Positions 38-17,994 of a DNA stretch of 64,000 nt are shown here, piece after piece. Each line of letters starts with the position of its first letter. The stretch's first letter is position 1. A program made the position numbers and the translations under genes. The stretch lies in IMG/VR virus record IMGVR_UViG_3300017914_002346. One strand, 5' to 3'. The DNA is from a virus (Duplodnaviria; Caudoviricetes). The notes below the pieces were generated by a model. That model was given only the letters and a program-made list of their open reading frames with translations, was not told the DNA's origin and searched no databases.

Positions 38-1891
38 TTATAAATTATCAACTCTGTAAACATCATCATACCAATTAGGAAGTTCTGGCTCTCTGTCATC
101 AACCGGAACCCACATATCACCTGAGTTATCAAATAGCCTTTCATTCATGATATCTATTGATTGAAAACCTAGAGGCATATCATCATCTTTTTCTTCTACC
201 GCTTCTTGGTAGATTACTTTAGATGGATCTGTCTCTGTCATTTCCTTCCAATAATCAGAACCAACACACCAACCAAATAATACCATACACATTACTAAGT
301 CATCATTTGTGCCGGGTTCAGCTGCAAAAGCTGAATTAACATTATCATTTTTTCTAGTAAACGTAGTCATTTCTACGTATATTTCATAATCTTCTGTTAG
401 GAGTTTATCTGTTTCAATTAACGATTTAAAATTTGAACAACCTTTAGTCTTAACTGAAGCACTAGTTGTTACACCTAATTTAGAACCCTGTCCTTCACCT
501 AACACAAAACCTGCTCTACCCTTACTTACAGTCTTAAGAACATTATCATATTCCATATCAGCGAATAAACTATTAACTACTTGACCACCTACATCATTAG
601 TTTCAACTAATATATGTGCGTTATTAAAATAAGCACCAATGTTAGATAAAAACTGAGGATAGATCATAGGTGTAACAGTATTAGATCTATACTTTGCTAC
701 TACTTTATATGGCATAGTAGTTACATCAAATACTATAAAAGCAGAGTAATCTAATCTTAAACCTCTCGCACAATCAACTGTTATAAGGTATCTATGATCT
801 GCTTTTGGTTCTTCATAAAAATCAACTTCATCTTTCTTTCTAATAGGGTTGATAAAAGACATATTAGATAGTTTAGATGGTGAAATTAACGTAGAAGCAG
901 ATCCTATAAACTGAGTTTCGAATTCTTGTCTAAATTGATCTTCAGATGTATTAGCAATTTGTTGTTGTTTCCAGTCATCATCTCTACCTGGAACATCCCA
1001 CCAGTTAATCTCAATAGGTTTAAAATTAGATCTACCTTCTTGTGCTTCCATCCACATTTTATAAAAATGATTCATACCTTTAGGAGTAGACACTACAATC
1101 ATTTTTGTATCTGCGCCAGATGAAATTGTAGGATAAACTGATCTAAAAAAGTCTTCAGCATCATGAGGCGGAACAAATGCAAACTCATCTAGAAAGATTA
1201 GAGAGAAAGACATGCCTCGAGCAGCTGACCCTGAACTTGATGTAGCAATAACTCTGCTTGCATTTTCTAAACTAATAGACCTTTTATTATATGTGTCAAC
1301 ACCTTGCTGTAACCAAAACGGTAAACTCTCATATGCTAATTGTAATCGTCCTAATAACTCTTGAGCAAGTTCACCTTTGTTAGCTAGAATACCTACATTC
1401 TTACCTGGGTTAAAAAGTATATACCAAAGAATAAAAGCAACACTAGTAGTAGATTTACCACACTGTCTTGGTAACTTGCAAATACTAAATCTATTATCTT
1501 TGAAACTATTAACCATTCCTTTTTGAAAATCATATAAGGTGAAAGGAATAGTACCAAAATCAACTGACATAATTCTTACATATGTCTCAGCAAAGTATAT
1601 TGGATCTTCCATACACTTTTTATATTCTCTTAATTGTTCAGGTGTATACTCTAAGTTAGCATGTGGTGCTTTTACATTAGGATTGCCTAAGTAGTGAGGA
1701 GCATTTGTCGGATTAAGTTCAAATAATTCAGGGTGAGTTAATTCTGTAGGAGCATCTTGATAAGTTCTTTGTTCAGATAACCAACCTAGTAAGTCTTTCT
1801 TAGACTTAACTAATACATCACCAAAGCTCTTCCAATTCTGATGTGTATTAGAATTATAATCTTTTTTTAAAACTACGTTATATTCGCTCAT
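38..1891 (-). CDS. gp17: Terminase large subunit
   Basis: YLGNPN N-terminal motif, Walker A LPRQCGKST, Walker B LIFLDEFAF, VSTPKGMNHFY, C-terminal nuclease with DDLVM; T4 gp17-like. Confidence 0.97.
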   Translation of the reverse strand: MSEYNVVLKKDYNSNTHQNWKSFGDVLVKSKKDLLGWLSEQRTYQDAPTELTHPELFELNPTNAPHYLGNPNVKAPHANLEYTPEQLREYKKCMEDPIYFAETYVRIMSVDFGTIPFTLYDFQKGMVNSFKDNRFSICKLPRQCGKSTTSVAFILWYILFNPGKNVGILANKGELAQELLGRLQLAYESLPFWLQQGVDTYNKRSISLENASRVIATSSSGSAARGMSFSLIFLDEFAFVPPHDAEDFFRSVYPTISSGADTKMIVVSTPKGMNHFYKMWMEAQEGRSNFKPIEINWWDVPGRDDDWKQQQIANTSEDQFRQEFETQFIGSASTLISPSKLSNMSFINPIRKKDEVDFYEEPKADHRYLITVDCARGLRLDYSAFIVFDVTTMPYKVVAKYRSNTVTPMIYPQFLSNIGAYFNNAHILVETNDVGGQVVNSLFADMEYDNVLKTVSKGRAGFVLGEGQGSKLGVTTSASVKTKGCSNFKSLIETDKLLTEDYEIYVEMTTFTRKNDNVNSAFAAEPGTNDDLVMCMVLFGWCVGSDYWKEMTETDPSKVIYQEAVEEKDDDMPLGFQSIDIMNERLFDNSGDMWVPVDDREPELPNWYDDVYRVDNL

Positions 1892-2244
1892 TCTTTACCT
1901 AATAATTCTAACAAGTCCTTAGTATTTAACTTAACATTCAAGTTATTAGTTGTAGATACTTTTTCCTTATTAGGATTATTAAGCTTCTCAGTTCTTAGCT
2001 GATGTTCCATCATCTTTTGGGCTATGTCACTTAAGGTAGCAGCAGTGTTAGTTGCTACTTCAATAGCTCTAGGGTGTTCTGACTCTTGTGCTAATTGTAC
2101 TGCTGAATCTAATATATCTTGCAACCTTTCAGCAGATGCGTATAATAACTCTCTTGAGTACGTATAATCATCTTGTCTATTTTCAAGTACCTTTTTTAAA
2201 TCTTTTTCAATAACAGATACTTCTTGAGTAATAGTATCGCTCAT
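1888..2244 (-). CDS. gp16: Terminase small subunit
   Basis: DDYTYSRELL..ESEHPRAIEVA..TTNN..TKDLLELL pattern; immediately upstream of gp17; start moved to ATG 2244 behind a GGAGG SD. Confidence 0.88.
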   Translation of the reverse strand: MSDTITQEVSVIEKDLKKVLENRQDDYTYSRELLYASAERLQDILDSAVQLAQESEHPRAIEVATNTAATLSDIAQKMMEHQLRTEKLNNPNKEKVSTTNNLNVKLNTKDLLELLGKE

Positions 2245-2316
2245 AAAAACCTCCAATAATAATTTATAATGTATTGTTAGAAGCCTGTTTTACGAACGAG
2301 AAGCTACTCTCTAAGT

Positions 2317-2324
2317 TATTTATA
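2317..2324 (-). promoter_or_regulatory. T4-type late promoter TATAAATA upstream of gp16/gp17
   Basis: Exact consensus on the minus strand. Confidence 0.8.
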
Positions 2325-2336
2325 TTAAATATTAAT

Positions 2337-3410
2337 ATGTATATTATTGACACTTTAGATACTGAAATTACTAATAGATGTAACGCGGCATGCCCTCTTT
2401 GTCCTAGGACAGGTACCTTTAATGGTTTAGCAGAGTTTATGGATCGCTCAGGTCCGTTAGATGTAGATCCTAAAATATTTGATAAAATATTTACCTCAGA
2501 GAAAGGTAAAAATATTAAGAGAGTTACTTATTGTGGTAACTATGGCGACCCTTGTGTGCATCCACAAGCAATGGAAATATTTAAAAAATGTGAGTCGTAT
2601 GGTGTTACTTTACAAAAAATAGATAGCAACGCTAGTATGAGAAACCCATCTTGGTGGGCAGAGCTTGGTAGTATAAAAGGTATGGAAGTAAATTTTGCTA
2701 TTGATGGATTAGAAGATACTAACCATCTATATAGAGTAAACACTAAGTGGGATAAGATAATGGCTAACGCAGAAGCATTTATAAAAGCTGGAGGTATAGC
2801 CCACTGGGTCTTTATTGTGTTTAAACATAATGAACATCAAGTTGAACAAGCTAGAGAACTTTCTAGAAAAATGGGATTTAAAAGATTTGCATCAAAAGAA
2901 ACAGTTAGACAATACTTACCAGATGTACCTTTAGAAAATCAAGGTCATTATGACTTAGCAGGTAACCTTTATAAGAAAAGTAGTAAACACGAAGAAAAAA
3001 GAACTATATATTCTTTACCAGAAAGTAAAAGATATCAACCTGAAATGTTAAGATACGGTTATAAAGAATCACCTATTGTATGTAGATCAGAAGATAAGAA
3101 GCAAATGTTCTTAACTAGTGATGAAAGGATTATTCCATGCTGTCATGTACAAGAGTTTTTTACTATTAAAGATTATCACCCTGAAAGAATAAATCAAGAA
3201 CCTAAATATCAAGGATATGAAATAGATGTTTTTTATAAACAATTTGGTGTCCTTTCTGATTTAAACAAAAATACATTTGATGAAATAGTAGATAGTTATA
3301 TGGAAGCTTACCCTTATCTAGAGTATATGTGGCAAGAAAGAAAAATGGCTAGATGTAATAAAAAATGTGGAAGTAATTTTAGAAATGGTTCACGATATCA
3401 AGAAAATTAA
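2337..3410 (+). CDS. Radical SAM protein with C-terminal SPASM/Twitch-like cysteines
   Basis: CNAACPLC motif, CGNYGDP, FAIDGL, C-terminal C..PCC..CxxxC; likely start ATG 2337. Confidence 0.9.
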   Translation: MYIIDTLDTEITNRCNAACPLCPRTGTFNGLAEFMDRSGPLDVDPKIFDKIFTSEKGKNIKRVTYCGNYGDPCVHPQAMEIFKKCESYGVTLQKIDSNASMRNPSWWAELGSIKGMEVNFAIDGLEDTNHLYRVNTKWDKIMANAEAFIKAGGIAHWVFIVFKHNEHQVEQARELSRKMGFKRFASKETVRQYLPDVPLENQGHYDLAGNLYKKSSKHEEKRTIYSLPESKRYQPEMLRYGYKESPIVCRSEDKKQMFLTSDERIIPCCHVQEFFTIKDYHPERINQEPKYQGYEIDVFYKQFGVLSDLNKNTFDEIVDSYMEAYPYLEYMWQERKMARCNKKCGSNFRNGSRYQEN

Positions 3411-3837
3411 AACTGAGTTAGACACTTTACCTGAATATGATAATCAGATATACTTGCAAGGTTTTTATGCAGGTCAGAATCCAACAGAACTGACTCAAGG
3501 ACAAACTTATAAGTATGTTGATGAAAATGAGTTATCTTGTTCTGTACCTCTTTTTAATTTGCCAGTTATTAATTCAATTATAGATCACTACAACTTAGTT
3601 CGAACTAGAGTCATGAAGATGAAACCAAAGACCTGCTACTATTGGCATAAAGATGTAACAAAGAGATTGCATATACCTGTAGTGACTCATGAACATTGTT
3701 TTCTAATTGTAGATGGTGAACAGATACATTTACCAGCAACTGGTGATGATTATATTATTGATACTACCAAAATGCATACAGCTATGAATTGTTCTAAGAT
3801 AGATAGAATTCATATTGTAGGAGCCTTTCGTGTATGA
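3385..3837 (+). CDS. Aspartyl/asparaginyl beta-hydroxylase-like 2OG-Fe(II) oxygenase
   Basis: HKD..RLHIP..HTAMN..RIHIV cupin pattern. Confidence 0.7.
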   Translation: MVHDIKKIKTELDTLPEYDNQIYLQGFYAGQNPTELTQGQTYKYVDENELSCSVPLFNLPVINSIIDHYNLVRTRVMKMKPKTCYYWHKDVTKRLHIPVVTHEHCFLIVDGEQIHLPATGDDYIIDTTKMHTAMNCSKIDRIHIVGAFRV

Positions 3838-5008
3838 TATTTTATTACTATCATTACCTGAAATGGATAAAGATAAACCGTCTCCAGGTCCTGCATATCT
3901 AAAAGGTTTTTTACAACCAGAGTTTAAAGTAAAAGTTATTGACGGTAATCAGATAGGTGATATAGATCATATATTACTTACTGTTGAGCAATACCAATTT
4001 AAGTGGTTAGGTATATCTGTATTCTCATATGAACAAGTAAATATTGCTTTAGAGATAGGATCAAATTTTAATAAAGTAGTTTACGGTGGTTCTGGAGTAC
4101 ATAAAGATTGGCCTACGGATTATTTCATAGTTGGTGAAGGTGAGTATGCTCTAAGAGAATTTTTACGAGGTAACGAATATAAAAATTTTAAGCAAATTGA
4201 AGATCTTAATATGCTTCCTATTCCAGATTATACTGATCAACTACATCCTAATATTAACGAATTAGTAATGACAGGTTCTAGAGGGTGTGTGCGTAATTGT
4301 TCTTTTTGTGATGTAGCTAGCATCTGGTCAAAGTATAGATGGGTTGATGGGAAAAAGCTTGCAGATAATATGCATGCTGTTTGTGAGCAAACTGGTATCT
4401 ATAAGATATCATTTTCAGATAGCTTAGTAAACGGATCTATGAAACACTTTCGCGAATTGGTAAAGGAGTTATCTTCTAGACCAAAAAAGATACGCTGGAA
4501 TGGACAATTTATAGCTCGTAAACAAAATAGTTTTTCACAAGAAGATTTTGATAACTTACTTAATTCAGGTTGTACAGGTTTAACTATTGGAATTGAATCT
4601 GGATCTGAATCAGTTAGAAATCATATGGGTAAAAAATTTGATAATAACGATTTAGATTATTTTATAACTAATCTAGGTGAACGTGGAATTAAAATGAAGT
4701 TTTTATTGATAGCTGGTTATCCGACAGAAACAGAAAGCGACTTTAAAGAAACTATAGAGATGCTACATCGATATAAAAAATATTCTGCTAAGGTAGAAAT
4801 ATCACCTCATATGATGTTAGTTGATAAAAACACACCGTTGGATTATCACCATAGAGATCTATTTGATATATTTGGATTTGAATGGAAAAATGAAAACTCT
4901 GATTACAAAGAACGATATAAAAGATTTTTAGAAATATTTAAAGTAGGACAAGAACTTGGTTATGGATTTAAACAACATGCACTTGATAAGATAGAGAAGT
5001 TTGCATGA
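3830..5008 (+). CDS. B12-binding radical SAM protein (class B methyltransferase-like)
   Basis: N-terminal cobalamin-binding-like domain (YGG, GEGE), SRGCVRNCSFC, GIESGS, AGYPTET. Confidence 0.88.
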   Translation: MYDILLLSLPEMDKDKPSPGPAYLKGFLQPEFKVKVIDGNQIGDIDHILLTVEQYQFKWLGISVFSYEQVNIALEIGSNFNKVVYGGSGVHKDWPTDYFIVGEGEYALREFLRGNEYKNFKQIEDLNMLPIPDYTDQLHPNINELVMTGSRGCVRNCSFCDVASIWSKYRWVDGKKLADNMHAVCEQTGIYKISFSDSLVNGSMKHFRELVKELSSRPKKIRWNGQFIARKQNSFSQEDFDNLLNSGCTGLTIGIESGSESVRNHMGKKFDNNDLDYFITNLGERGIKMKFLLIAGYPTETESDFKETIEMLHRYKKYSAKVEISPHMMLVDKNTPLDYHHRDLFDIFGFEWKNENSDYKERYKRFLEIFKVGQELGYGFKQHALDKIEKFA

Positions 5009-6318
5009 TTATAGGATACTCTAACGGCTTTCATGATGCGGGCATGTCTGTTATTTCCTATAGTGGAGATATAGTATATGCAGGTCATGCAGAAAGATAC
5101 TCAAGAGTAAAAGGTGATAAAAACCATTGTGGACGTATGCCTGTTTATAATGGTACAACTGTTTTCTATGAAGACCCTAAACTTAAAAATGAGAGATTAA
5201 TATTTGCAGGACAAGAAAAAATATATAGACCTGAATATGATCATTATTGTGAACATCATTGGTCACATGCTGCGGCTAGTTACTATACAAGACCATACGA
5301 AGAAGAGCCTGTATGTGTTGTTATAGACGCAATAGGAGAATGGGATACTTGCTCTATATGGTATAAGAAAAAGAAAGTATGGTCTCAAGAGTATCCTTAC
5401 TCATTAGGTTTATTTTATTCTGCTATTACTCAACGCTGTGGTCTAAAACCAATGGAAGATGAGTATATTACAATGGGAATGGCAGCTTATGGTAAACCTA
5501 TTTTTAATTTGGAATACTTATTAGAAATGAACTTACATAAAGGTTGTGGTAATATAATACCTAATGCAAAGCGTAGCGATTTAGCAGCATCAGCACAACA
5601 TTTATTAGAAACTAAAATTATTGAGATAATGAATAAAGCTAAAGAGTACTCTAATTTTTTGTGCTATGGGGGTGGTGTAGCTCTTAATTGTGTAGCTAAT
5701 TCTAAAATATATGACATGTTTAATAAAGTGTGGATATTTCCTAATCCTGGTGATGCTGGCTCTTCTTTAGGAGCTGCTGCTTCATATTTAGATAAAAAGG
5801 TTAAGTGGAAAGATTGTTTCTTAGGTAATGATATTAATCAAGAACTTGATATTAAAGGTATTGTACAAGAACTACTTAAGAACAAAGTTGCAGGTGTTGC
5901 TAATGGTAAGGCTGAGTTTGGTCCAAGAGCTTTGGGTAATCGTAGTTTGTTAGGTGATCCTAGATATAACATAAAAGACAAAATAAATGATATAAAGCAA
6001 AGACAAAGATATAGACCATTCTCTCCTGCTGTGTTATCGGAGTATGCTTCTGAGTTCTTCGATGGTCCTATGAATGAATATATGCAATATGTAGCAGTAG
6101 CTAAACATGATTACAACTCTGTAATACATGTTGACGGTACATCTAGAGTGCAAAAAGTGTATAAGGGTAACCTTAGAAAGATACTAGAAGAGTGGTATGA
6201 ACAAACTGGCTGTCCTATGTTATTAAACACTTCATTAAACATTAAAGGTCAACCTATAGTAAACAGCTGGCATGACGCAGAAGATTTTATGAAAAAGTAT
6301 AAAGTAAAATGTTTTTAG
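5005..6318 (+). CDS. Carbamoyltransferase (NodU/CmcH/TobZ family)
   Basis: HDAG, HHWSHAA, GGVALNC, GDAGSSLGAA, EFGPRALGNRS, RPFSP, HVDGTSRVQ, LLNTSLN. Confidence 0.95.
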   Translation: MIIGYSNGFHDAGMSVISYSGDIVYAGHAERYSRVKGDKNHCGRMPVYNGTTVFYEDPKLKNERLIFAGQEKIYRPEYDHYCEHHWSHAAASYYTRPYEEEPVCVVIDAIGEWDTCSIWYKKKKVWSQEYPYSLGLFYSAITQRCGLKPMEDEYITMGMAAYGKPIFNLEYLLEMNLHKGCGNIIPNAKRSDLAASAQHLLETKIIEIMNKAKEYSNFLCYGGGVALNCVANSKIYDMFNKVWIFPNPGDAGSSLGAAASYLDKKVKWKDCFLGNDINQELDIKGIVQELLKNKVAGVANGKAEFGPRALGNRSLLGDPRYNIKDKINDIKQRQRYRPFSPAVLSEYASEFFDGPMNEYMQYVAVAKHDYNSVIHVDGTSRVQKVYKGNLRKILEEWYEQTGCPMLLNTSLNIKGQPIVNSWHDAEDFMKKYKVKCF

Positions 6319-7028
6319 TTAGTGGTTGTTCTTTTACATCAGATAAACAATATGTAGATGGCTCAGGTAAAAACTGGGCTAAACAACTATCTGAAATGTT
6401 AAATGAAGATTATGAAAATGTTGCTCTAGGTGGTTATTGCAATAATAATATTTTTAATTCTGTATATGACAAATTAGTATTAAGTAATAATAATTTCTCA
6501 AAAGTGATAGTAATGTGGACAGGGTTTGAGAGACTTAAAATATTTCAACAATCAGTAGATCCTATTGCTTGGGAAAGAAACTATAAGTTGTTTGGACACC
6601 CTCATAACCCTAACAATACAGTTAATCCTCCTACAGGGTTAAAAACGAACAAACTTAAACATGCAATTAATTATTACAATTTTGAAAAGGTGATAGATGA
6701 TAACTTAAGATACCAATACATCTTACAACAAGAATGTTTTTTAAGAGGTATAGATTTATATTATTGTCAGGGAGTAAAAGAGATATCTAATTTGAGACAA
6801 ATTAGTCATTTATTTGATTCTGATACAATAACAAAACATGATAATTTTTATAAACATATTAAAGAATCTAAATTTTATAAACTAATAGATAGAAAAAATA
6901 CGTTAGAGAAAAATTATAGAATGAGATATGGAAATACACCAAAACTAATTATACCTAAAGATAATCATCCCTCAGAATATGGACATAGTTTAGTAGCTAA
7001 TGATCTGTTTAATATTATTCGTAAATAA
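6309..7028 (+). CDS. SGNH/GDSL-like hydrolase or acyltransferase
   Basis: N-terminal GCSFT block and C-terminal DNHPSEYGH (DxHP). Confidence 0.65.
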   Translation: MFLVSGCSFTSDKQYVDGSGKNWAKQLSEMLNEDYENVALGGYCNNNIFNSVYDKLVLSNNNFSKVIVMWTGFERLKIFQQSVDPIAWERNYKLFGHPHNPNNTVNPPTGLKTNKLKHAINYYNFEKVIDDNLRYQYILQQECFLRGIDLYYCQGVKEISNLRQISHLFDSDTITKHDNFYKHIKESKFYKLIDRKNTLEKNYRMRYGNTPKLIIPKDNHPSEYGHSLVANDLFNIIRK

Positions 7029-7794
7029 AATTATCATCTAATTCATAATCTGAATACCAATAATCAAATACCCAATTATCATCTGAATTATGAATTAAGT
7101 TGTCTGCATTAGAAAAATGAACCATCTTTATAGTATCACAAAAATCACCACCCATCATAAATGGTTCTTCTGAGTTAACAAACTCATTCCAGTTTTTCTG
7201 TATTTTAAGATAATCAATATCATGATACTTTGCAAACCATTCCATAGGCAACCAATGTTTATTATTAACATGGTTATCAATAAAATTTTGTTCCCCGTTT
7301 ACTGGACCTTCACATTGACCTGTTTCAATGTAATATTGTTGCCAATGTTCAGGATCTTCAATAAATTTTTTCCACAGGTAGTTTGTTTCTCCCATTCTAT
7401 ACATTTGAAAACCACCGTTCAATTTACAAAAATGTCTTAGATTTGACCACCATCTTTCAAAGCAACCAAAAGTATTTTCAGGTAAATTATAGTTTAGAAT
7501 ATCATCTAGATTGTTTATTATAATCCAGTCTATATCTAATATAATACATGTGCTACCTTCTTTAATATCTGCAAAGCCGTTCTTATGAAAAATTAATTTA
7601 TGCCATTGTAATTTAAACTCATTAGGATCTTTTATATCTACTGTTTTAATATCAGATACTAAACCACTACTATCTTCTGTATAACAATAAAAATTAAAAT
7701 CTACTGTAGAGTTTCTTTTCATACTAAAGAAAAGATTATTAACATATTGAGAAGAATACTTATCACCAACTTTAAGAGTTAAAATATTAATCAT
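7015..7794 (-). CDS. Glycosyltransferase (GT-A fold)
   Basis: LKVGDKYSSQYVNNL N-terminus, DxD motif ILDID, GEQNFI; paralogue of 12141..12860. Confidence 0.75.
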   Translation of the reverse strand: MINILTLKVGDKYSSQYVNNLFFSMKRNSTVDFNFYCYTEDSSGLVSDIKTVDIKDPNEFKLQWHKLIFHKNGFADIKEGSTCIILDIDWIIINNLDDILNYNLPENTFGCFERWWSNLRHFCKLNGGFQMYRMGETNYLWKKFIEDPEHWQQYYIETGQCEGPVNGEQNFIDNHVNNKHWLPMEWFAKYHDIDYLKIQKNWNEFVNSEEPFMMGGDFCDTIKMVHFSNADNLIHNSDDNWVFDYWYSDYELDDNFIYE

Positions 7795-8825
7795 GTTACT
7801 ACTCTATCAGAACCTGCAGATCTCTGACCACACACTCTTTGACAAGTACCTGGTCCGTTATACTGCCATTCATTTTTCACTTCGTTGAAAAAATCATTAT
7901 TAAATGCATATTTTAAAATAGCGCCTGATTCTACTTCTAAAAGATTAACAGCTGGATTCATTTTCTCCATTAAAACTATTTCAGTAGCATTTTTATATCT
8001 ATCAGGAGATGATTTATAGTTTTGAAATTGTTTATATAGATCAGAAGCTAAATGACAACAAGGCCATAAAGTACCATCACAATGAATAAAAGTATTTTTA
8101 TGTTTTAAATAACTGCAGCTTATATTCTTAATTTCTTTATCTTGTTTTCTACTTACTCCTGAGCCTACAAAAGAATCACTAGGTGGTTCTAGAACTCTTT
8201 TTTCTCCTTCAGGTGTTACATAACTAATACCATCAACATCTTTACCCCAACCTCTATTAGATTTTCTTAAAATAAACTCTTTAAAACCTAACTCTTTGGA
8301 CAAAGATTTTGCTTCTTCTACTTGATGTTCATTATGTTTAAAAGGAATAAACTCCCATACTGCGTTACCACCACTTTGTATAAAGGATTTAGCGTTATTA
8401 ATAATTTTATTAAAGTCTGTTTTTTGTCTATATAAATGATTAGTATCCTCTAAGCCGTCAATATGAAAAAAAACTGTAGATGAGTTGCTATTCATACAGC
8501 TACCCATCTCACTCCACCATTTTTCATTTCGTAAGCTGCCGTTAGTTTCTAATAATATAGTTACAGGATAATTACTCAGGTACTTAACTATAGGTAAACA
8601 GTCCTTAGCAGCAATAGGGTCACCTACATTACCACATAAGCTTACTTCATCTATAGTATAAAGAACATCTTCGTTCATTATGTGCTTAAAATCATTTACT
8701 AATAATTCTCTTTTCCTACTTACATATTCTGTAGGCAGTGAAAAATTATACCTATTAGTTCTCATACAGAGAGGACAAGCAGCATTACATTTTTCAGATA
8801 ATTCAAAAGTAACTTTTTTAATCAA
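7791..8825 (-). CDS. Radical SAM protein with SPASM/Twitch-like cysteines
   Basis: CNAACPLC, CGNVGDP, TNGS, IDGLEDTNHLYR; paralogue of 2337..3410. Confidence 0.9.
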   Translation of the reverse strand: MIKKVTFELSEKCNAACPLCMRTNRYNFSLPTEYVSRKRELLVNDFKHIMNEDVLYTIDEVSLCGNVGDPIAAKDCLPIVKYLSNYPVTILLETNGSLRNEKWWSEMGSCMNSNSSTVFFHIDGLEDTNHLYRQKTDFNKIINNAKSFIQSGGNAVWEFIPFKHNEHQVEEAKSLSKELGFKEFILRKSNRGWGKDVDGISYVTPEGEKRVLEPPSDSFVGSGVSRKQDKEIKNISCSYLKHKNTFIHCDGTLWPCCHLASDLYKQFQNYKSSPDRYKNATEIVLMEKMNPAVNLLEVESGAILKYAFNNDFFNEVKNEWQYNGPGTCQRVCGQRSAGSDRVVT

Positions 8826-9531
8826 CTACACCACCATCGTAAGAACCAAAACCCCATTTCTTTTCCAAACACCAATAACATATTTGACAGGGAGTTATAC
8901 CACCGTTTCTTAATCTAGTACAACTTACTGTATATGGATATAAACTTTCTAATAAGTCAAATTGTTTATAAATTTTAAACAGATAAGATTTGTCAACAGT
9001 TTTAAAAGGTTCTCTATTTTTTTTCAGGTTATTAACTTGCTTTATACTATAATCTCTTTCTTTAAGTGCGGGGGTTTCACTAACTAATTTATCTAAGGCT
9101 TCTATTTGTCCTTCCGGTGGTTTTCTAGTTGTACCTAGTAGTATTACATCTAAGTCAAAATCTAATTTAAACTGATCTCTTGTTTTTCTTAGTAAAAGTT
9201 TTTTTTCTTGTTTATAAGCTACAAAATAATCATAAAAATGTAACCCTTCAAATTGTATTTCTGGAAACATATTTACTAAAATATCATAACATTTTTGAGC
9301 AGGTTTTATACTATAATTTTCATTTTCATATCTAGTGTTATTAGCATTAAAACAATAAACTTTAATTTGTGATTGCATATTTTTACGCATTATAGATTCA
9401 CATAATACATAAGTTAAAAGACTGGAATCTACACCACCCGTAAAAGATACAGCTATTTTATTATTATAAATTTCACCTTTTAATAATCTATCAAAATAGT
9501 CTATTTTAATATTGTCTGCTTCTAGTATCAT
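8818..9531 (-). CDS. QueC-like PP-loop ATPase
   Basis: SFTGGVDSS PP-loop; TVSC..PCQICYWC Zn site. Confidence 0.8.
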   Translation of the reverse strand: MILEADNIKIDYFDRLLKGEIYNNKIAVSFTGGVDSSLLTYVLCESIMRKNMQSQIKVYCFNANNTRYENENYSIKPAQKCYDILVNMFPEIQFEGLHFYDYFVAYKQEKKLLLRKTRDQFKLDFDLDVILLGTTRKPPEGQIEALDKLVSETPALKERDYSIKQVNNLKKNREPFKTVDKSYLFKIYKQFDLLESLYPYTVSCTRLRNGGITPCQICYWCLEKKWGFGSYDGGVVD

Positions 9532-10241
9532 TTTATACCACCATCATACATACCGAAAGCCCATTTCTTTTCTCTACACCACCAACACTCTTTACATGGT
9601 TCTGAAAAAAAACTAGTTGACTCGGAATACTCGACACAACTTGCAGTAATAGGAAAAAGCTCATCCATTAAATTAAATTTTTTATATTGTTCAGATACAA
9701 ATCTTTTATCTAAAAACTCCATTGGACAATAAAAAGGCTTATCATGATTTTCATGATAAGGTTGCCTTAAGTTACCGTGTTGATCTCTTCTCTCTTCTCT
9801 TTTATGTAGAAGATTATTCTCTTTAGCAACATCTTCTGGTGGATTAGCTGTTCTTCCGTGAAATAAAACATCTATAATTTTTTCTTCTCTAAGTCTATCT
9901 TCATGCTGAACGTGTTGATTAGTTTTGTCCTTCTCATGTTTTTTATCATAATAATTAAACTCATGATCTTTCCAATTAAGATTAGGAAACCATTCTTTGA
10001 ATAGTAAGATAATTTCTCTTACATTCCATTCATTAGTAGGTCTTAAATTATGTACACCGGTAATAGGAATAATACCAACATCAAATTTTTTTCTGTATTC
10101 TAACTCTCTACAAGTCATAAACAAAAGTAGAGAAGAGTCAGCACCACCAGAAAGATTAATTCCTATATTTTTAAACCTGTTAAGTTTATCTTCATAAGGA
10201 TCCCAAAAATTTAATTTACCAATACTTGAATTATAAATCAT
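9528..10241 (-). CDS. QueC-like PP-loop ATPase
   Basis: LSGGADSS PP-loop; TASC..PCKECWWC Zn site. Confidence 0.8.
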   Translation of the reverse strand: MIYNSSIGKLNFWDPYEDKLNRFKNIGINLSGGADSSLLLFMTCRELEYRKKFDVGIIPITGVHNLRPTNEWNVREIILLFKEWFPNLNWKDHEFNYYDKKHEKDKTNQHVQHEDRLREEKIIDVLFHGRTANPPEDVAKENNLLHKREERRDQHGNLRQPYHENHDKPFYCPMEFLDKRFVSEQYKKFNLMDELFPITASCVEYSESTSFFSEPCKECWWCREKKWAFGMYDGGIK

Positions 10242-11586
10242 AATAACTATCGTGTTTAAAATGAGACTTCCATTCAGGAAAGTATTTTAAAATATTATCG
10301 CCTCTGTTTTTGTCTCTTCTTATTATAGATGCTATCATTTGATGATATCTTAATTCATCAAACTCAGCTCTTTCTAGATAATCAATAACTTTACCTAGCT
10401 TTTCAACTACATCATAACTATTATTATACAATCTATTTAAGTGATGTTCTCTAATGTCTGGAGGTAAACTTTTAAGAGTAAACCAAGCGGGTCTTCCTAT
10501 ATGCATATAAGAGGGTTCTACACCAAACTCTAAAGCGCCTTTTAGTATTTCATCTGCATAACCTGAATTTATAGGATTAATAGTAGGGTTAAAACCAATA
10601 TTTACATTTGGTATCTTACTTATCTTTTTAATGTTAGTAAACACTTCATTCCAATCAGAAGGCCATCTTATATAATTATTTTTTTCGCCCCATAGTTCTA
10701 GAGAGCATCTATAAATTACGCTCTTAAACTTTGATAGTAGTTCATAGATATAATCAGGATTAGGATGGCCAAAATTATTTGAGAAGCAAAAGATAGTTAT
10801 ATCTTTAGCCCATCCTTCTTCTACACATTTCTCTAGCACTCTAACATTCTTTTTAATTAACCAAGTCTCACCACCTATAAGCTGAATACGTTTAGTTTTT
10901 TCTACTAACTTCCAAAAGTCGTCCATATCTAAATTATGATCGTTGTGAGTAATAAGAGGAGGAGTCCAAGGCATTTTCATATCAGCTCTTTGTTCTGATC
11001 TGTGAAGAATATCTTCTTCCGTCATTTCTCCTATATCCATAAGTTCTTGAGCTACTCCAGATGAATCTTCTGGTGAACACATTAGACATTGAAGGTTACA
11101 AAAATTACCCCAAGTCTTAATACGAATAGTATGAACGGTTTTAGGTATAGGATATTCTTTACCTTTGTTCTCTTCAACATACTTGACTAATCTAGCAAGT
11201 TCTTTTCTTGTATCTTCATCCTTTTCAACAGGTTGGTTACTTTGCATTCTAGTACTAACATGACCGTTAGTTTCTGTTTCAATACAACGTGAACAAACTC
11301 TTTCTATCATATCAGTAGAATGACCATGTACCATTTCTTCTCTTAGTTTAAATAGTTCTGGTTCATTCCAAATATCATCTAACTTTATAGTTGAGATATG
11401 TTTTTTAACACATACTGTAGTATTAGAACAAGGATGAGGAAGACCATAATTTGAAACATATAAATTAATAAATGGCTGCGCACAAAACCATTTTTCATCT
11501 TTAGTTAAATTTTCTAGCATTTTTTTATAGTTAGGTTTTTCCTTGCTAGTAGGAGACATATTACCTAAATAATCATACTCTTCCAA
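10231..11586 (-). CDS. Radical SAM protein with N-terminal SPASM/Twitch-like domain
   Basis: N-terminal CAQPF..PC..CSRC; CNLQCLMC; GGE motif. Confidence 0.88.
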   Translation of the reverse strand: MEEYDYLGNMSPTSKEKPNYKKMLENLTKDEKWFCAQPFINLYVSNYGLPHPCSNTTVCVKKHISTIKLDDIWNEPELFKLREEMVHGHSTDMIERVCSRCIETETNGHVSTRMQSNQPVEKDEDTRKELARLVKYVEENKGKEYPIPKTVHTIRIKTWGNFCNLQCLMCSPEDSSGVAQELMDIGEMTEEDILHRSEQRADMKMPWTPPLITHNDHNLDMDDFWKLVEKTKRIQLIGGETWLIKKNVRVLEKCVEEGWAKDITIFCFSNNFGHPNPDYIYELLSKFKSVIYRCSLELWGEKNNYIRWPSDWNEVFTNIKKISKIPNVNIGFNPTINPINSGYADEILKGALEFGVEPSYMHIGRPAWFTLKSLPPDIREHHLNRLYNNSYDVVEKLGKVIDYLERAEFDELRYHQMIASIIRRDKNRGDNILKYFPEWKSHFKHDSYYDL

Positions 11587-12157
11587 TTACCATAAACCTT
11601 TTGTAAATATCAAAATCTAATTCATCTTCATAGAATACTTTTTTAATATTATATTGTTTGTTAAGTTCCTCATAACTCTTAACACAATTAATATGTTCTT
11701 GTATTTCTGTGTAGTTATTGCTTTGTAATAAAACTATACCTGATTCTATGTTTAATGGTTTCATATGCTCACATGAAGTGCATATTATAAGTTTTCTATT
11801 ACCTGAGAAAGTAATATTAGTAGCATCTTGTAGTTTGTAATTTATTTTTTTGTCAAGAGGAAAATAATAGTTCTTACATATCTCTATCGCTGTTTCGTCT
11901 ACCTCATAAAAATTAATTAGTATATCATTAAACAGTTCTCTTATTATTGGAATAATTTGATGACCGTACCACCCTCCAATAACCTCAACTCTGTCTAGAG
12001 GAGAGTTTTGTATCTTTTTATCTCTTACTTTAGTCAATTCTCTTTTAAGCCAATACTTACTTTCAATCTGTTTAGAATCAAAAGATTGTGCTATATCAGC
12101 TGCTCTCATAGGATATCTTTTAAGCACTTTTTGAGTAGTACTATCTATAGTAAACAT
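11573..12157 (-). CDS. Class I SAM-dependent methyltransferase-like protein
   Basis: VIGGWYG glycine loop, acidic residue after strand 2 (YEVD), CTSCEHM. Confidence 0.6.
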   Translation of the reverse strand: MFTIDSTTQKVLKRYPMRAADIAQSFDSKQIESKYWLKRELTKVRDKKIQNSPLDRVEVIGGWYGHQIIPIIRELFNDILINFYEVDETAIEICKNYYFPLDKKINYKLQDATNITFSGNRKLIICTSCEHMKPLNIESGIVLLQSNNYTEIQEHINCVKSYEELNKQYNIKKVFYEDELDFDIYKRFMVIGRV

Positions 12158-12860
12158 CCATACCCTTTAACATTTCATCTTCTGTAAATTGTTTGTCCAA
12201 TCCGTTGAGTAAACAAACTTTTCTTTCTGGTCTGTCAAACATATTAATTCTTAAATCATTTTTATATTTGTTAGTTACTATTTGACCATTAGTTTCACCA
12301 TCTCCGTACACTCTAGAATAAAACCATTCTTCAGGAAACGTTTCTATATGCTCTCTAAGTTCTCTTTCCCAATATAAAAATCTATCTATACCTTTGTACT
12401 TAAGCATAAAAAATTCATCATCTTTACGAAAGTATTCCCATATAAAATCTAAAGTGTCTGCTTCCCATATCAAACAGCTTGAGTTTCTTCTCATATCAAA
12501 ATTTTCTTCATTTAATACACTTTCAGGTTTCCAATAAGAAGAAATTTTGCAAAGACCTTTAGTTTTAAAATTAGCTATCTCATCAATATTATTTTGAATT
12601 ATTACATCTAAATCAAAGAATAAACACTTACCTTTCAGATTACCAAAACCTTTTTCAAACATTGCTAACTTATTCCACCAAACTTCAAGGTTATTATGTT
12701 TGATAGGAATAATATTAATATCTTTAAGGTTGCTACTATCTTCTGTTAAACAATAAAAATTAAAAGGTAAAGTTAAGTTCTTTTTAACCATGTAATGTAA
12801 TCTGTTTACATGTTCATAGTTGTATTTGTCACCCCATTTTACACAAATAACATTAATCAT
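12141..12860 (-). CDS. Glycosyltransferase (GT-A fold)
   Basis: VICVKWGDKY, WWNKL, DxD motif FFDLD, NSS. Confidence 0.78.
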   Translation of the reverse strand: MINVICVKWGDKYNYEHVNRLHYMVKKNLTLPFNFYCLTEDSSNLKDINIIPIKHNNLEVWWNKLAMFEKGFGNLKGKCLFFDLDVIIQNNIDEIANFKTKGLCKISSYWKPESVLNEENFDMRRNSSCLIWEADTLDFIWEYFRKDDEFFMLKYKGIDRFLYWERELREHIETFPEEWFYSRVYGDGETNGQIVTNKYKNDLRINMFDRPERKVCLLNGLDKQFTEDEMLKGMDVYYR

Positions 12861-13479
12861 TTTCTATATCTTCTATCATACTCTCCCACATACCTTTATG
12901 AGGTAATACAAAACTGCATGTAAGTCTATGTTCATCAAAACCTCTAGCTGTATGCCAAAAAATATCTTCTTCTTTAAAACCAAAATAACCAGCTTTAGCT
13001 GACCAACCTACAGGGTCATTTAATGTAATAATTTCTTTAGTTTTAGGGTCTTGGTATCGAAAAAAACCGTTGCCTTTTAAACTGTAAGAGAGTATAATAT
13101 TATATCCATGACAGTTTTCGTTTGTATGCCATCCAATGAAACCGTTAGGAGGATAAACCATCATAAGAGAGCTAAACTTAGAACCTAATACGTCATTAAT
13201 TCTAGTTTTATACTCTTCAAACTCTTCATAAAGGTGAGTAAATTTATATTGAGAAGTAAAAAGAAAATCATAACCAAAACTATCTAAAGGAAAGCCTTCA
13301 TGTTTACTATCAAGTTTAGTTTTCTCTAAACACTCTATACTTACAGCTTCATCAACGTTGCTCGCATTGCGCCAGTGTTGTTCATAACCTATCTTAGATA
13401 AATCTAGATTGTAGACTAAATCGCTATATTCGTTAAGTACTGATAGTAGTTCTTTATTTTTAATAATAACGTTTTTCAT
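12853..13479 (-). CDS. Putative cupin / 2OG-Fe(II) oxygenase-like protein
   Basis: YPPNGFIGWHTN and FWHTARG..R double-stranded beta-helix pattern. Confidence 0.5.
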   Translation of the reverse strand: MKNVIIKNKELLSVLNEYSDLVYNLDLSKIGYEQHWRNASNVDEAVSIECLEKTKLDSKHEGFPLDSFGYDFLFTSQYKFTHLYEEFEEYKTRINDVLGSKFSSLMMVYPPNGFIGWHTNENCHGYNIILSYSLKGNGFFRYQDPKTKEIITLNDPVGWSAKAGYFGFKEEDIFWHTARGFDEHRLTCSFVLPHKGMWESMIEDIEND

Positions 13480-14120
13480 ATCGTGTGATGTAGTAAAACT
13501 ATCTCTTTATCTGTTTCTTCTTTTTTATACAAGTGTACAAAGTTCCATCTCGCGTCTAACTCTTTAATTTTTAGTTTATATTTCTTATTAAGATGCCAAA
13601 ATGTATACTGATCCCATCTTTTAATATTATCTGGTTTATCTATAAATTTTTCTGGATTTGATATTTGTAGGTTATAATTATCCCACCACATTTTCATAAA
13701 CCAATTTATATCTTTACGAAAGATAAACATACCACAGTGCCAAGTTAAGTTATCATATCCATGATTAAAATAGTATTGTGAAGCTGCATACTCTCTAATT
13801 TTAGTAAGTGCTATATCATAATTACCAAGTTCATCGAAAACATTTTCTATATCTGAATTAATACATTCCATGTCAGCATCTAAATAACAACACAGATCAT
13901 ATGATGTATTGTATAAACTGTATAGTTTAGTTCTTTTGTTTACAGGGCAATCAGTTACTATATTAACGTATTTTTTATCTGAAGAATTTACGAATCGTTC
14001 TTCAGTAAAAAGAGTAATATTAGCATCCTTATAATAATCAAGAATACTATCTATTAGTAACATAGCTGAAGTGTAATATTTTTTATCTAAGGTAGCAGAT
14101 AAAACAAAGCCGTTAGTCAT
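13476..14120 (-). CDS. Glycosyltransferase (GT8-like)
   Basis: DxD motif YLDAD, WDQ, RWNF, terminal HHT; likely start MTNGFV at 14120. Confidence 0.75.
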   Translation of the reverse strand: MTNGFVLSATLDKKYYTSAMLLIDSILDYYKDANITLFTEERFVNSSDKKYVNIVTDCPVNKRTKLYSLYNTSYDLCCYLDADMECINSDIENVFDELGNYDIALTKIREYAASQYYFNHGYDNLTWHCGMFIFRKDINWFMKMWWDNYNLQISNPEKFIDKPDNIKRWDQYTFWHLNKKYKLKIKELDARWNFVHLYKKEETDKEIVLLHHTI

Positions 14121-14547
14121 TCCTATAGCTTTCTGAAACAATAGCAGATGCGTATGCGTATGCTTCAGAAATATTTTTAGCTTTTCTTAACTTGCTTTTT
14201 AAAATTCTATTCTGTGAAGCTTTAACTTCTTCGATTTCAAATAACTCAAGTTTTTTATTAAACAACTCTTCCTGCTCGTTGTTTTGTTTAATAACTTTTT
14301 CTTTTTCTTCTGATTTTGGCTTTTTTCTATTCCAATGCATTTCACTATGCTGTGTAATAGTTTCTTCTCCAAACTGAGAAATAATTTTTGCAAAATCGGG
14401 ATTAATAGAACCTGTATCGGTTAACTTATTAACAATTGTATAAACACTTTGAACTCCACCCTCAGGTGTAGTAGTCTCTAACATACAATGTATCATTTCT
14501 TTTTTTTCATTATCAAAAATAGGGTTTGTATAAACCATTCCGCTCAT
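14113..14547 (-). CDS. Hypothetical protein
   Basis: ORF coupled by an ATGA overlap to the upstream structural gene. Confidence 0.7.
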   Translation of the reverse strand: MSGMVYTNPIFDNEKKEMIHCMLETTTPEGGVQSVYTIVNKLTDTGSINPDFAKIISQFGEETITQHSEMHWNRKKPKSEEKEKVIKQNNEQEELFNKKLELFEIEEVKASQNRILKSKLRKAKNISEAYAYASAIVSESYRND

Positions 14548-15440
14548 CCTGTTCTTCTCCATAATTTATATACTGTGTTGTCGCTTGAAGTAGTAAGAAT
14601 AGTGTTACCTGTATAATACCCGGTAAAAGTACCATAGTTAACACCTGCATAGTAAAGTATGTAGTTACCTGAGTAAGCTACGTTACCTTGATCTTTTAAT
14701 GTATCTTTAACGTCCACACCCGCTTGTACCCATGTACCTGTAGCTGGTGCTGTAGGTTGAAAAGCATACGTACCGATTAATTTAGTTTGAATAATGTTTG
14801 CTAATCTAGCTGATAGAGACTGTATTTCACTATCACCCATTTCTATTAGACCTGGACCTGAGGAATCATTAATCTTTAACGGTCTTTGACCACCATCTAT
14901 TTCTGAAATACCAGGACCTGTACTTTGTTGTAAGTAGTATGTAACTGATGTTCCATCTACTTGTGTATCAGTTAAAGTACCTCTTTGTGTATGATTAGCA
15001 ACAGATGCTGAGGTAGAGAAAGTATAAACACCATAAGCTGTACCAGCAGCTATTTTGTTGAGACAAGTTTGAAGAATAGTCGAATCTAAGCTGTTATCAT
15101 TAGATTCAATTAAACCTACCGCAACATTACTATCACTATCTATTTCAACAGGTCTAATAATATTAGACTCGTCATCTGAGTCTGTAACTTGATAAAGAGT
15201 TGTAGTAGTACTTGATGTTGATCCTGTAGCTGGATGAGTACCTACCGCTTCAGTTCTAACAGCATTAACGTATGAGCCAATACTAACCTTACCTGTAGCT
15301 GAACCTCCTACAGTTAAAGTTGCGCATGTATTATTCTGAGAGAAATTCAATAATACTAAATCAGCAATGTAACTTAGATCGCTATCTTGTGCTTCAATTA
15401 CACCGCCATTGTTTAAATCAATTACTACTGGTCTTGCCAT
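14544..15440 (-). CDS. Putative virion structural protein with three internal repeats
   Basis: T/S/G-rich; RP(V/L)xI..G(V/L)IExxD three times; DSD motifs. Confidence 0.6.
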   Translation of the reverse strand: MARPVVIDLNNGGVIEAQDSDLSYIADLVLLNFSQNNTCATLTVGGSATGKVSIGSYVNAVRTEAVGTHPATGSTSSTTTTLYQVTDSDDESNIIRPVEIDSDSNVAVGLIESNDNSLDSTILQTCLNKIAAGTAYGVYTFSTSASVANHTQRGTLTDTQVDGTSVTYYLQQSTGPGISEIDGGQRPLKINDSSGPGLIEMGDSEIQSLSARLANIIQTKLIGTYAFQPTAPATGTWVQAGVDVKDTLKDQGNVAYSGNYILYYAGVNYGTFTGYYTGNTILTTSSDNTVYKLWRRTG

Positions 15441-15450
15441 AATCTAATCC

Positions 15451-16584
15451 TTAAGGTGTATCTGAATCGTGTTGTAATACACTTCCAGAAAATGCTGTGC
15501 TACCATCTACTCTCTTAATAGTAAATCTTTGAGGATGAGTAAAGGTGCTTCCCGCAAAAGTAATCTCACTATCTATATTAAGCTTTCCTACTGATAATTT
15601 ATTACCTTGAGCAGAAGAAGACCAAATTTTTCTCCAAATAGCATATAAAAGATTACCATTACCATCTGAATCATATACTACATATTTTTGAGCTACTAAA
15701 CTATCACTATCAGTAGTTCTAATATTGTATTGATAATCAGAATCATCTGTAATTGATGTATCTAACCAATACAATTCTCCTTGTTCAGAGTCTTTATTTT
15801 GTATCCACAAGTTACCAATATTTAAAGCTTTTTCGGGCGGTGTGTTCTTTACAATAGGAATATTGTTAAGCTCAATTATTTCGTATTCTTCTCTAGGATT
15901 ACGTTGAGCTATTTTATGACCTGATGCAACTGAACCTGCAAAGTCAGTTAAGAATATTGTTGAACCTGAATGTGAGATTAACCTACCATTACCTAATGTT
16001 CTTCTTACACCACCACCCTGATCTTGATCAAAGTCAATAATAGTACTAGCTGAAGTATTAGTTAGAGAAGGTGTGCCTGAAAGATTAACTCTAAGAATAG
16101 TTTTTGTAGTAAAGTCAATATATCTGGCAAAGTCTGAATCTTGTGTAAATGTTGCTGTACCTGTTGAATTATAATATGTTACAGAATTAGATGTAGAAGA
16201 AACATTAGAAGCTCCTACCTCTGCTGTAGCTGCATTTTTAATTTGAGTAACTACATCAGCAATCACAGTATCAGAATCAATGTTTAATGATTTAGCATTA
16301 CCATTAATATTATATCCTAATGTAATTGTATCTGAATCATAATCAACATCTTGAATAGTAATAACAAAACCAGCATTTTGATTGAATGTAGTTACTGTTT
16401 GCGAGTATTGAAATGAAGTAAATCTTTGTCTCTTAGTATACAATTTCCTCGTAATGAGGTTCATTGCAATTTCACCTTCAAGCACTTGACTTGGAAGTGG
16501 TTGACCTTCTCCGTTTACACCGTTAATTCTAGCTCTTCGGTGTTGTACGAAACCTCTTTGAATTTGGGTATCACTATCAATCAT
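15451..16584 (-). CDS. Putative tail fibre / fibre-associated protein
   Basis: N-terminal QHRR..P..GEIAMN..KLY motif typical of T4 gp36/gp37-type fibre N-termini; 8 DSD. Confidence 0.65.
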   Translation of the reverse strand: MIDSDTQIQRGFVQHRRARINGVNGEGQPLPSQVLEGEIAMNLITRKLYTKRQRFTSFQYSQTVTTFNQNAGFVITIQDVDYDSDTITLGYNINGNAKSLNIDSDTVIADVVTQIKNAATAEVGASNVSSTSNSVTYYNSTGTATFTQDSDFARYIDFTTKTILRVNLSGTPSLTNTSASTIIDFDQDQGGGVRRTLGNGRLISHSGSTIFLTDFAGSVASGHKIAQRNPREEYEIIELNNIPIVKNTPPEKALNIGNLWIQNKDSEQGELYWLDTSITDDSDYQYNIRTTDSDSLVAQKYVVYDSDGNGNLLYAIWRKIWSSSAQGNKLSVGKLNIDSEITFAGSTFTHPQRFTIKRVDGSTAFSGSVLQHDSDTP

Positions 16585-17980: not shown

Positions 17981-17984
17981 ATTT

Positions 17985-17991
17985 TATTTAT
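17985..17991 (-). promoter_or_regulatory. Late promoter ATAAATA, 4 nt before ATG 17980
   Basis: T4-type late -10 element. Confidence 0.7.
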
Positions 17992-17994
17992 TTC

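Follow-up and report, generated by a model that had tools for sequence, protein, structure and literature searches.

An uncultured marine T4-like myovirus carries, between its terminase genes and its genes for fibre and neck proteins, an 11.8-kb block of 14 enzyme genes (A to N, hereafter the island), and the question that it raises is what these enzymes modify. The island was analysed in the window, meaning the whole 64,000-nucleotide stretch of IMG/VR record IMGVR_UViG_3300017914_002346, which has a G+C content of ~0.32. Its gene content and its behaviour among relatives identify it with good confidence as a hypervariable tailoring-enzyme island of the known pelagimyophage type. As for the acceptor, the leading reading, held tentatively, is that the enzymes build a strain-specific glycan coat on virion proteins of the tail, neck and fibres. 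Remodelling of the host envelope, a mixture of auxiliary genes with unrelated ends, and DNA hypermodification compete with it, each somewhat less likely on the evidence.

The large terminase TerL of this virus (38-1891, minus strand) is at most ~54% identical to that of any isolate, the best matches being cyanomyoviruses, and the neck protein is at most 31% identical. The small terminase subunit TerS (gp16-like; 1888-2256, minus strand; phrog_445, E-value 2.6e-18) forms the left boundary of the island, which consists of two convergent arms: genes A to E on the plus strand (2337-7028) and genes N to F on the minus strand (14141-7015). Read along the minus strand, the order is a VrlC-sized open reading frame (ORF), gp13, gp14, gp15, R, Q, P and O, and then N to F. 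From the start of R at 17980 to the end of F at 7015 all junctions overlap, except for one 10-nt gap at 15441-15450, which is the order and packing that a first-pass annotation of the sequence had described. P, Q and R (14544-17980, minus strand) are fibre- or baseplate-like structural genes rich in the tripeptide Asp-Ser-Asp (DSD); they sit immediately upstream of the minus-arm enzymes, on the same strand and overlapping, and R bears the gp9/10 N-terminal domain PF07880. On the right the region is anchored by a gp15-like tail sheath stabiliser (17995-18861, minus strand; phrog_227, E-value 3.3e-56). Since the distance from gp15 to TerL is only 1.2-5.5 kb in outgroup T4-like contigs, R, Q, P and O together with the island constitute an insertion between gp15 and gp16. 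The G+C content of the island, 0.29-0.30, is lower than that of its flanks, 0.33-0.35. The 149-aa protein O (14113-14562, minus strand), between the fibre-like genes and the island, gave no match in family searches, and its C-terminus is kept in contigs L022-L028 by tblastn. The VrlC-sized ORF (20861-26548, minus strand; 1895 aa) is so called from its length.

The first-pass annotation had listed three GT-A glycosyltransferases, four radical S-adenosylmethionine (SAM) proteins of which one B12-dependent, a NodU-type carbamoyltransferase, an SGNH protein, two QueC-like ATPases, a methyltransferase-like protein and two oxygenase-like proteins. This inventory largely holds; the ground is weaker for the B12 dependence, the QueC-likeness, the SGNH assignment, the second oxygenase and one glycosyltransferase. 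The conserved core comprises the adjacent genes L and K. L (12141-12860, minus strand; phrog_1962, E-value 1.2e-12) is a GT8-like retaining GT-A glycosyltransferase with an invariant DxD motif (D83, D85). Its AlphaFold model, with a predicted local distance difference test score (pLDDT) of 91, matches LARGE1, UGGT, GlyE, glycogenin and LgtC in Foldseek at E-values of 4e-8 to 3e-6, GT8, GT24 and GT6 structures at a probability of 1.0, and viral GT8 models at a template modelling (TM) score of 0.81. The nearest folds thus take in GT8 and GT24 enzymes that glycosylate proteins (GlyE, glycogenin, UGGT). F (7015-7794, minus strand) is a GT-A paralogue of L, with 45% identity over the first 100 residues (E-value 5e-22) and the same invariant DxD. 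No Pfam glycosyltransferase model matched L, F or the third candidate, N (13476-14141, minus strand). N matched no other Pfam model and no PDB sequence either; its GT8/nucleotide-diphospho-sugar-transferase-like assignment comes from language-model matches (0.97) to clusters with PF03407 and PF01501, and its sequence contains an LDAD motif. The true start of N is probably the ATG at 14120. K (11573-12157, minus strand) belongs to a family that lacks a Pfam model and adopts a class-I SAM-dependent methyltransferase fold, as expected from the first-pass annotation: its AlphaFold model is confident (pLDDT 91), Foldseek finds methyltransferases at an E-value of 6e-6, and profile searches match spermidine synthase and a methyltransferase at 1.7e-4.

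The fold search with L also returned two entries from uncultured caudoviruses (BFVD A0A6J5PVH5 and A0A6J7XC21), where a GT-A domain resembling L is embedded in a larger protein (~700 aa) that bears the annotation MptE-like. The Maf flagellin glycosyltransferases are characterised by this domain family. If the two entries do belong to it, they would offer a lead towards protein glycosylation.

The four radical SAM proteins stand, all with the CX3CX2C motif (at residue 15 in A, 13 in G, 153 in C and 163 in J) and with model matches. A (2337-3410, plus strand; phrog_21308, E-value 3.5e-24) carries a SPASM/twitch-type C-terminal cysteine cluster and matches NCBIfam radical SAM/SPASM models at an E-value of 1e-10, below their cut-off. 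Its paralogue G (7791-8825, minus strand), 38% identical, is likewise a radical SAM/SPASM protein, matching phrog_21308 at 5e-23 and TIGR04317 at 1.8e-15, below cut-off; both proteins fall below the Pfam cut-off and are significant in PHROGs and NCBIfam. C (3830-5008, plus strand) is a methyltransferase-like radical SAM protein, probably of class B, the B12-binding type, with PF04055 at 60 bits against a cut-off of 29.5. The B12-binding domain PF02310, at residues 17-111, stays under its threshold (E-value 1.3e-3; 19 bits against 32.1), and the best NCBIfam matches are all to B12-dependent radical SAM families, far under their cut-offs, with the PhpK family at 1.7e-30. From this architecture a dependence of C on B12 is likely. 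J (10231-11586, minus strand) has an N-terminal twitch domain and matches NF033640 at 250.9 bits, above the cut-off of 170. In the soil jumbo phage RsoM2USA of Ralstonia (MG752970.1, 215958-218304) homologues of K and J are adjacent, so the pair of a methyltransferase fold and an N-twitch radical SAM protein is not limited to marine T4-like phages.

Among the remaining enzymes, the carbamoyltransferase is the NodU/TobZ/CmcH-family protein D (5005-6318, plus strand; phrog_1601, E-value 3.9e-79). Both of its Pfam domains, PF16861 (Carbam_trans_C; 150.8 bits) and PF02543 (Carbam_trans_N; 116.7 bits), score above cut-off, in agreement with the NodU-type assignment, and the protein falls short of the NodU equivalog model (108 against 1000 bits). 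B (3367-3837, plus strand) resembles AspH/LpxO-family Fe/2-oxoglutarate (Fe/2OG) hydroxylases. It carries an HxD...H motif, scores 30.8 bits with PF05118 against a cut-off of 22.6, and has an iron triad (H94, D96, H137) that is invariant among aligned homologues. The second putative oxygenase, M (12853-13479, minus strand), belongs to a viral family with an HxN...H...RxT motif, in which W117, H118, N120, H176 and R185 are invariant. One of 20 homologues matches PF03171 (E-value 0.0026), a PDB sequence search of M gave no significant match, and hhalign against the AspH-like set lines up the motifs at a probability of only 6.7%. By its motifs M is possibly an oxygenase of the double-stranded beta-helix type, so that of the two oxygenase-like proteins B stands above threshold and M at the level of motifs.

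E (6309-7028, plus strand) is tentatively an SGNH/GDSL-like hydrolase or acyltransferase: the blocks G-[DC]-S, GxN[DN] and D-x-H-P are kept across five homologues, with the Asp-His spacing one residue short in several. Its PDB matches to GDSL domains are sub-threshold (E-values 0.035 and 1), and it has no Pfam match. H (8818-9531) and I (9528-10241), both on the minus strand and 28% identical, are paralogous PP-loop ATP pyrophosphatase-like proteins with C-terminal cysteine clusters. H contains TGGVDSS and weakly matches PP-loop, TilS and Asn-synthase models; I contains SGGADSS and has invariant C202, C216, C219 and C222. Their PP-loop and QueC-like matches are sub-threshold (E-values 0.07 to 1e-3), with QueC models at 0.07-0.2, well below cut-off. 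An identity as QueC was accordingly rejected for both, the PP-loop motif was retained and the proteins were classed as PP-loop ATPases. PDB sequence searches with E, H and I gave no significant match. K, L/F, M, E and the radical SAM proteins A/G and J have either no Pfam family or sub-threshold matches only. Membrane segments were found in none of the 14 proteins, and neither was a flippase, a polymerase or a lipid-carrier transferase.

The content of the site changes quickly among relatives. In those whose gp14 and gp15 are 79-89% identical to the proteins encoded here, the island enzymes are only 25-40% identical or belong to other families, and the islands hold further radical SAM proteins, PP-loop proteins and a GNAT protein. 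The sole recurring unit is a block of the glycosyltransferase-K-glycosyltransferase-glycosyltransferase type at ~30% identity, which lies on the fibre-gene side in contigs G006, G007 and G008 of the DSD-rich clade; AspH-like genes also occur in G006 and L030. One 31-kb IMG/VR contig (L034/L053) reads gp15-R-Q-P'-TerS-TerL, with no island at the site. No L-family homologue was found in these 31 kb, which amount to ~18% of a genome. As the content of the site is swapped and one relative is without it, the island is the local version of a hypervariable type. The arrangement in the window is itself stable: contigs from samples of other studies span the greater part of the island, with its gene order unchanged, at ~95% (run X11) and ~99% (run X3) identity. 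The phage occurs at ~99% identity in seawater samples (runs X1-X3). One X11 metagenome contig appears to join position 2324 to 15731 across a weak joint with a 39-nt side, which is a possible natural deletion variant. A joint from 6423 to 19282 and most other X11 joints were set aside, as they have short sides and probably stem from other organisms or repeats.

Similar enzyme sets recur in phages further afield. The island of Pelagibacter phage Mosig EXVC030M holds AspH-like, K-like, E-like, carbamoyltransferase and MoaA-like radical SAM genes. These are accompanied by genes for a DegT aminotransferase, an epimerase and a GNAT protein, a company that points to amino-sugar chemistry. In contigs L141/L142 a carbamoyltransferase gene stands with AspH-like and J-like genes immediately upstream of gp13 and gp14 on the same strand, and L074 has carbamoyltransferase, J-like, K-like and L-like genes beside neck genes. 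On the viral contigs L002/L005 a PP-loop gene, three radical SAM genes, a carbamoyltransferase gene and three E-like genes stand together, in a stretch that, as far as examined, contains no structural genes.

The first-pass annotation had placed a late promoter at 17985 and a late-like sequence at the head of the plus arm (2323-2331). The string AATAAATA is indeed present at 17985-17992 on the minus strand, only 4 nt before the ATG, and TATTAAATA at 2323-2331 on the plus strand is non-canonical and 5 nt before the ATG. At this distance of 4-5 nt neither is fit to serve its own gene in the usual way, so both promoter roles are weak. The perfect T4-type late motif TATAAATA near the head of the plus arm (2317-2324, minus strand), in the 80-nt divergent intergenic region, faces TerS and not that arm, ~60 nt upstream of the TerS ATG. 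It is the only perfect copy in the island region, and perfect copies are depleted in the window as a whole (5 in 64 kb against 14.7 expected by chance). Sites resembling σ70-type promoters are not enriched (98 against 102.5 in shuffled sequence), and of 12 terminator-like sites (5.4 in shuffles) the majority lie within genes. With promoter motifs this unconvincing, the timing of expression rests on gene packing alone. The argument from a late transcript shared by structural genes and nine enzymes keeps the support of the packing, with promoters that are weak, and is specific to this lineage. Short contigs from a metatranscriptome (run X20) are ~99% identical to L, R, Q and gp15; since DNA carry-over is possible, they are only a hint of island expression.

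Two further observations concern these motifs. AATAAATA recurs on the minus strand, at 17985-17992, 20717-20724, 26565-26572, 33571-33578, 36002-36009 and 29-36, a few nucleotides upstream of several structural-gene start codons. Possible explanations are a late promoter variant of the NATAAATA type and an element of translation initiation; for a promoter the ~4-nt spacing is odd. A perfect TATAAATA at 42673 is directly followed by a TnsA-like endonuclease gene (42690-43259, plus strand; PF08722, E-value 3.6e-19), which lies inside the baseplate gene block on the opposite strand and probably encodes a homing or mobile endonuclease.

We infer the sugar chemistry, the acceptor and the expression timing from these data as follows. 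Sugars from host nucleotide-sugar pools would be put onto a cytoplasmic acceptor and then decorated. Transfer would fall to the three GT8-like retaining glycosyltransferases, methylation to the class-I methyltransferase fold and the class-B radical SAM protein, carbamoylation to the NodU/TobZ-type enzyme, acylation or de-acylation to the SGNH-like protein, and amidation to the PP-loop ATPase pair. The SPASM/twitch radical SAM proteins and the AspH/LpxO-like hydroxylases might carry out oxidation or rearrangement. The acceptor would be the tail, neck and fibre proteins that are made at the same time. In favour of this reading, nine enzyme genes continue the strand of the fibre-like genes, each stop codon overlapping the next start, all 14 proteins are of a soluble type and from families that fit sugar transfer and tailoring, and comparable sets neighbour the neck or fibre genes of marine T4-like phages that are not closely related (Mosig, L141/L142, L074). 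The protein-glycosylating enzymes among the nearest folds of L, the recurring glycosyltransferase-K block and a selected DS[DE] motif in the virion proteins of the clade also speak for it.

The structural proteins themselves carry a conspicuous tripeptide. DSD occurs 88 times in the ORFs of the window against 7.4 expected, and Asp-Ser-Glu (DSE) 26 times against 6.6, so the DSD richness that the first-pass annotation had noticed is real; it is also clade-wide. Tail, neck, baseplate and fibre proteins account for almost all of them (with DSD 3 times in P, 8 in Q and 4 in R, against 0.1-0.3 expected), and the 14 enzymes contain one. The serine codons are mixed, which places the signal at the protein level. 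The sites, written DS[DE], are conserved, switch between the Asp and Glu forms, and show turnover from one relative to another. The clade with TerL identity of at least 67% is tagged (324 copies against 38 expected, 25 loci), as is the 109-kb contig G006 (139 against 14); the outgroup with TerL at 49-55% is untagged (24 against 54.5, 55 loci). Of all tripeptides in the ORFs of the window, PPP is the most enriched (15 against 1 expected). A 489-aa protein at 33626-35095 (plus strand), which adjoins the lysozyme gene (35092-35535), contains 17 DSD, many in an 18-residue repeat ...VYQNDSDK..., and is the only plus-strand DSD-rich gene in its region.

An attractive extension would have the GT8-like enzymes O-glycosylate the serine of DS[DE], with the island as the variable 'serotype' part whose other enzymes tailor the glycan strain by strain. 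If true, a phage tail would wear a hypervariable coat of glycans whose placement is directed by a sequon; this extension is rather unlikely. The island as writer of the tag was rejected, because Mosig, G009, G010, L074 and L001-L018 have the enzyme modules without DSD enrichment, and L034/L053 shows the converse. The link between tag and island is a coincidence at the level of the clade, as follows from these untagged module carriers, from the tagged contig without an island and from the much weaker conservation of the enzymes shared across the clade compared with that of the tagged proteins. Literature searches on DSD in the virions of phages yielded one relevant paper only, on staphylococcal Ser-Asp repeats, which are glycosylated by SdgA and SdgB (PMC3794999). 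This is the only precedent returned for an Asp-flanked serine as a glycosylation site, and it differs from the present case in that long SD dipeptide repeats of bacterial cell-wall proteins are modified there, as opposed to isolated DS[DE] tripeptides in phage proteins.

Several observations weigh against virion proteins as the acceptor. The island has no nucleotide-sugar synthesis gene. The enzymes diverge or are replaced where gp14 and gp15 keep 79-89% identity, and among the relatives no conserved enzyme able to read a sequon is visible. Co-orientation with structural genes is not conserved, the enzymes of L020-L036 and G006 being mostly on the opposite strand. Mosig, G009, G010 and L074 have the same modules and neither DSD nor another tripeptide tag, and the island-less L034/L053 is DSD-rich, with 36 DSD in one ORF. 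Some genes in the islands of relatives do not look like glycan genes at all (a TctA transporter, nitronate monooxygenase, fatty-acid-desaturase-like and AurF-like proteins). The large marine phage contig L041 (1-7905) carries a tandem array of eight radical SAM genes followed by a K homologue, with FolE, a QueC-like gene, gp59 and gp32 a few kb on, and GT-A enzymes glycosylate phage DNA as well (bioRxiv 10.1101/2023.12.21.572611). The first-pass annotation had favoured modification of virion proteins over DNA on the grounds of late timing and position. That preference is supported in part by the enzyme families, their solubility, the neck and fibre neighbourhood and the absence of a hypermodification hallmark from the island, and is undercut by the lineage-specific transcript, the promoters and the swapped content.

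The acceptor might instead be the host envelope, with the enzymes working from the cytoplasmic side on lipid A, on the core of lipopolysaccharide (LPS) or on some other glycoconjugate of the surface. By masking or changing the receptor, such remodelling would limit superinfection or keep progeny from being lost on cell debris. It would explain why the island both sits and varies with the fibre genes. GT8 is the classic family of LPS-core transferases and LgtC is among the fold matches of L, the family of B includes the lipid A hydroxylase LpxO (a weak match, E-value 0.0029), and the islands of relatives contain fatty-acid-desaturase-like genes, as does that of Mosig, a phage that also has an LpxH-like gene. 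The published reading of the glycosyltransferases of pelagimyophages (PMC7029224) and cyanomyophages (PMC12801897) is the same, but that interpretation is itself inferential. Nine enzymes co-transcribed with late virion genes would come late for superinfection exclusion, membrane proteins, flippases, ligases and lipid-carrier enzymes are all missing from the island, and four radical SAM proteins with a PP-loop pair would be unusual in LPS-core work. On balance envelope remodelling is unlikely.

The genes may also form no single pathway. The hypervariable site would then collect assorted auxiliary genes that serve two or more unrelated ends, such as RNA modification, host metabolism, or the chemistry of small molecules or cofactors, and a chance about as small attaches to this possibility. 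It is consistent with the heterogeneous content in relatives just described, with the two convergent arms and the lower G+C content, and with the relative that has no island and the weak 2324-15731 join. However, the same families co-localise repeatedly and in differing orders in unrelated phages, which argues for joint work; moreover, the genes of the window are translationally coupled and keep their order in the contigs of ~95% (X11) and ~99% (X3) identity. In the corresponding island of one relative, contig L059 (6183-7505) encodes a full-length membrane subunit of a TctA tricarboxylate transporter (PF01970, E-value 1e-84) beside a nitronate monooxygenase-like gene.

A sugar- or carbamoyl-bearing base, built on phage DNA before or during packaging, would suit an island that adjoins the terminase genes. 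PP-loop (QueC-like) proteins, radical SAM proteins and methyltransferase folds are known in base-modification pathways. The K homologue and eight radical SAM genes of L041 also lie near a dCTP deaminase gene, and L139 (3247-14808) has an array of at least eight radical SAM genes next to ThyX. Late expression would be compatible with this too; phage Mu, for one, makes its Mom modification late. The clusters that glycosylate and hypermodify phage DNA resemble the island in having a GT-A enzyme beside tailoring enzymes, sometimes near terminase genes, but they pair 5mYOX or ThyS with GT-A or GT-B enzymes (bioRxiv 10.1101/2023.12.21.572611), whereas the island lacks 5mYOX/TET, a C5-methyltransferase and a hydroxymethylase, and L is GT8-like rather than a JGT- or TarP-like GT-A enzyme. 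As the 14 island proteins and ten other window proteins gave no Pfam match to TET/5mYOX, hydroxymethylase, DpdA, FolE, QueD or QueE, the resemblance of H and I to QueC is sub-threshold, and the same families mostly stand among fibre and neck genes rather than replication genes in the phages examined, DNA hypermodification is improbable.

Whichever acceptor applies, marine T4-like phages of abundant oligotrophic bacteria give 10-45 kb of the virion module to fast-changing sets of tailoring enzymes. To our knowledge the function of such sets has never been tested, and the literature assumes modification of host LPS. The window is a compact case, with genes packed as in one operon, and together with its relatives it constitutes a natural experiment, in which the same structural proteins are combined with different islands and one contig has none at the site. 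Decoration of the virion would change the understanding of host range, particle stability and adsorption for highly abundant marine viruses, and would also reveal new radical SAM chemistry on sugars or proteins. Even with the host envelope or DNA as target, the island offers enzyme families that await characterisation (K, L/F, M, E, A/G and J).

Known systems offer several comparisons, the first of them in sugar tailoring. Aminoglycoside pathways use the TobZ carbamoyltransferase, class-B radical SAM methylases of the GenK type, the twitch radical SAM dehydrogenase BtrN and the dioxygenase KanJ. The island similarly combines glycosyltransferases, an O-carbamoyltransferase, a probable B12-type radical SAM protein, twitch/SPASM radical SAM proteins and an Fe/2OG oxygenase, a combination that acts on sugars in those pathways. 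It differs in that no equivalog score is reached and the window has neither a scaffold enzyme of the 2-deoxy-scyllo-inosose synthase type nor an aminotransferase.

Viruses that glycosylate their own particles offer a second comparison. Chlorovirus capsids carry glycans made by virus-encoded glycosyltransferases. Phage-encoded virion glycosylation has a precedent in mycobacteriophages of the Che8 type, according to the citation of Freeman et al. 2023 in PMC11256854. The island shares with these systems soluble, virus-encoded glycosyltransferases whose cytoplasmic substrates would be structural proteins, and the conserved adjacency of a glycosyltransferase and a methyltransferase fold recalls methylated capsid glycans. 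In contrast to them, its enzyme set is far larger, rich in radical SAM proteins and variable between close relatives.

The closest counterpart is the pelagimyophage 'host recognition cluster', a non-syntenic island in the virion module between VrlC and gp14 (Zaragoza-Solas et al. 2020, PMC7029224). Both are large non-syntenic islands by tail-fibre genes within the virion module, rich in glycosyltransferases and radical SAM cassettes. The VrlC-gp14 site does not agree: here the VrlC-like gene, gp13, gp14 and gp15 form an unbroken run, and the island stands between gp16 and the fibre-like genes that are inserted after gp15, so it is filed as a variant of the host recognition cluster and not as a plain member. 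In further contrast, nine of its enzymes are co-oriented and overlapping with structural genes, and its clade has the DS[DE] tag that Mosig lacks. What is new is thus the different insertion site and the fusion of part of the island into the late gene string.

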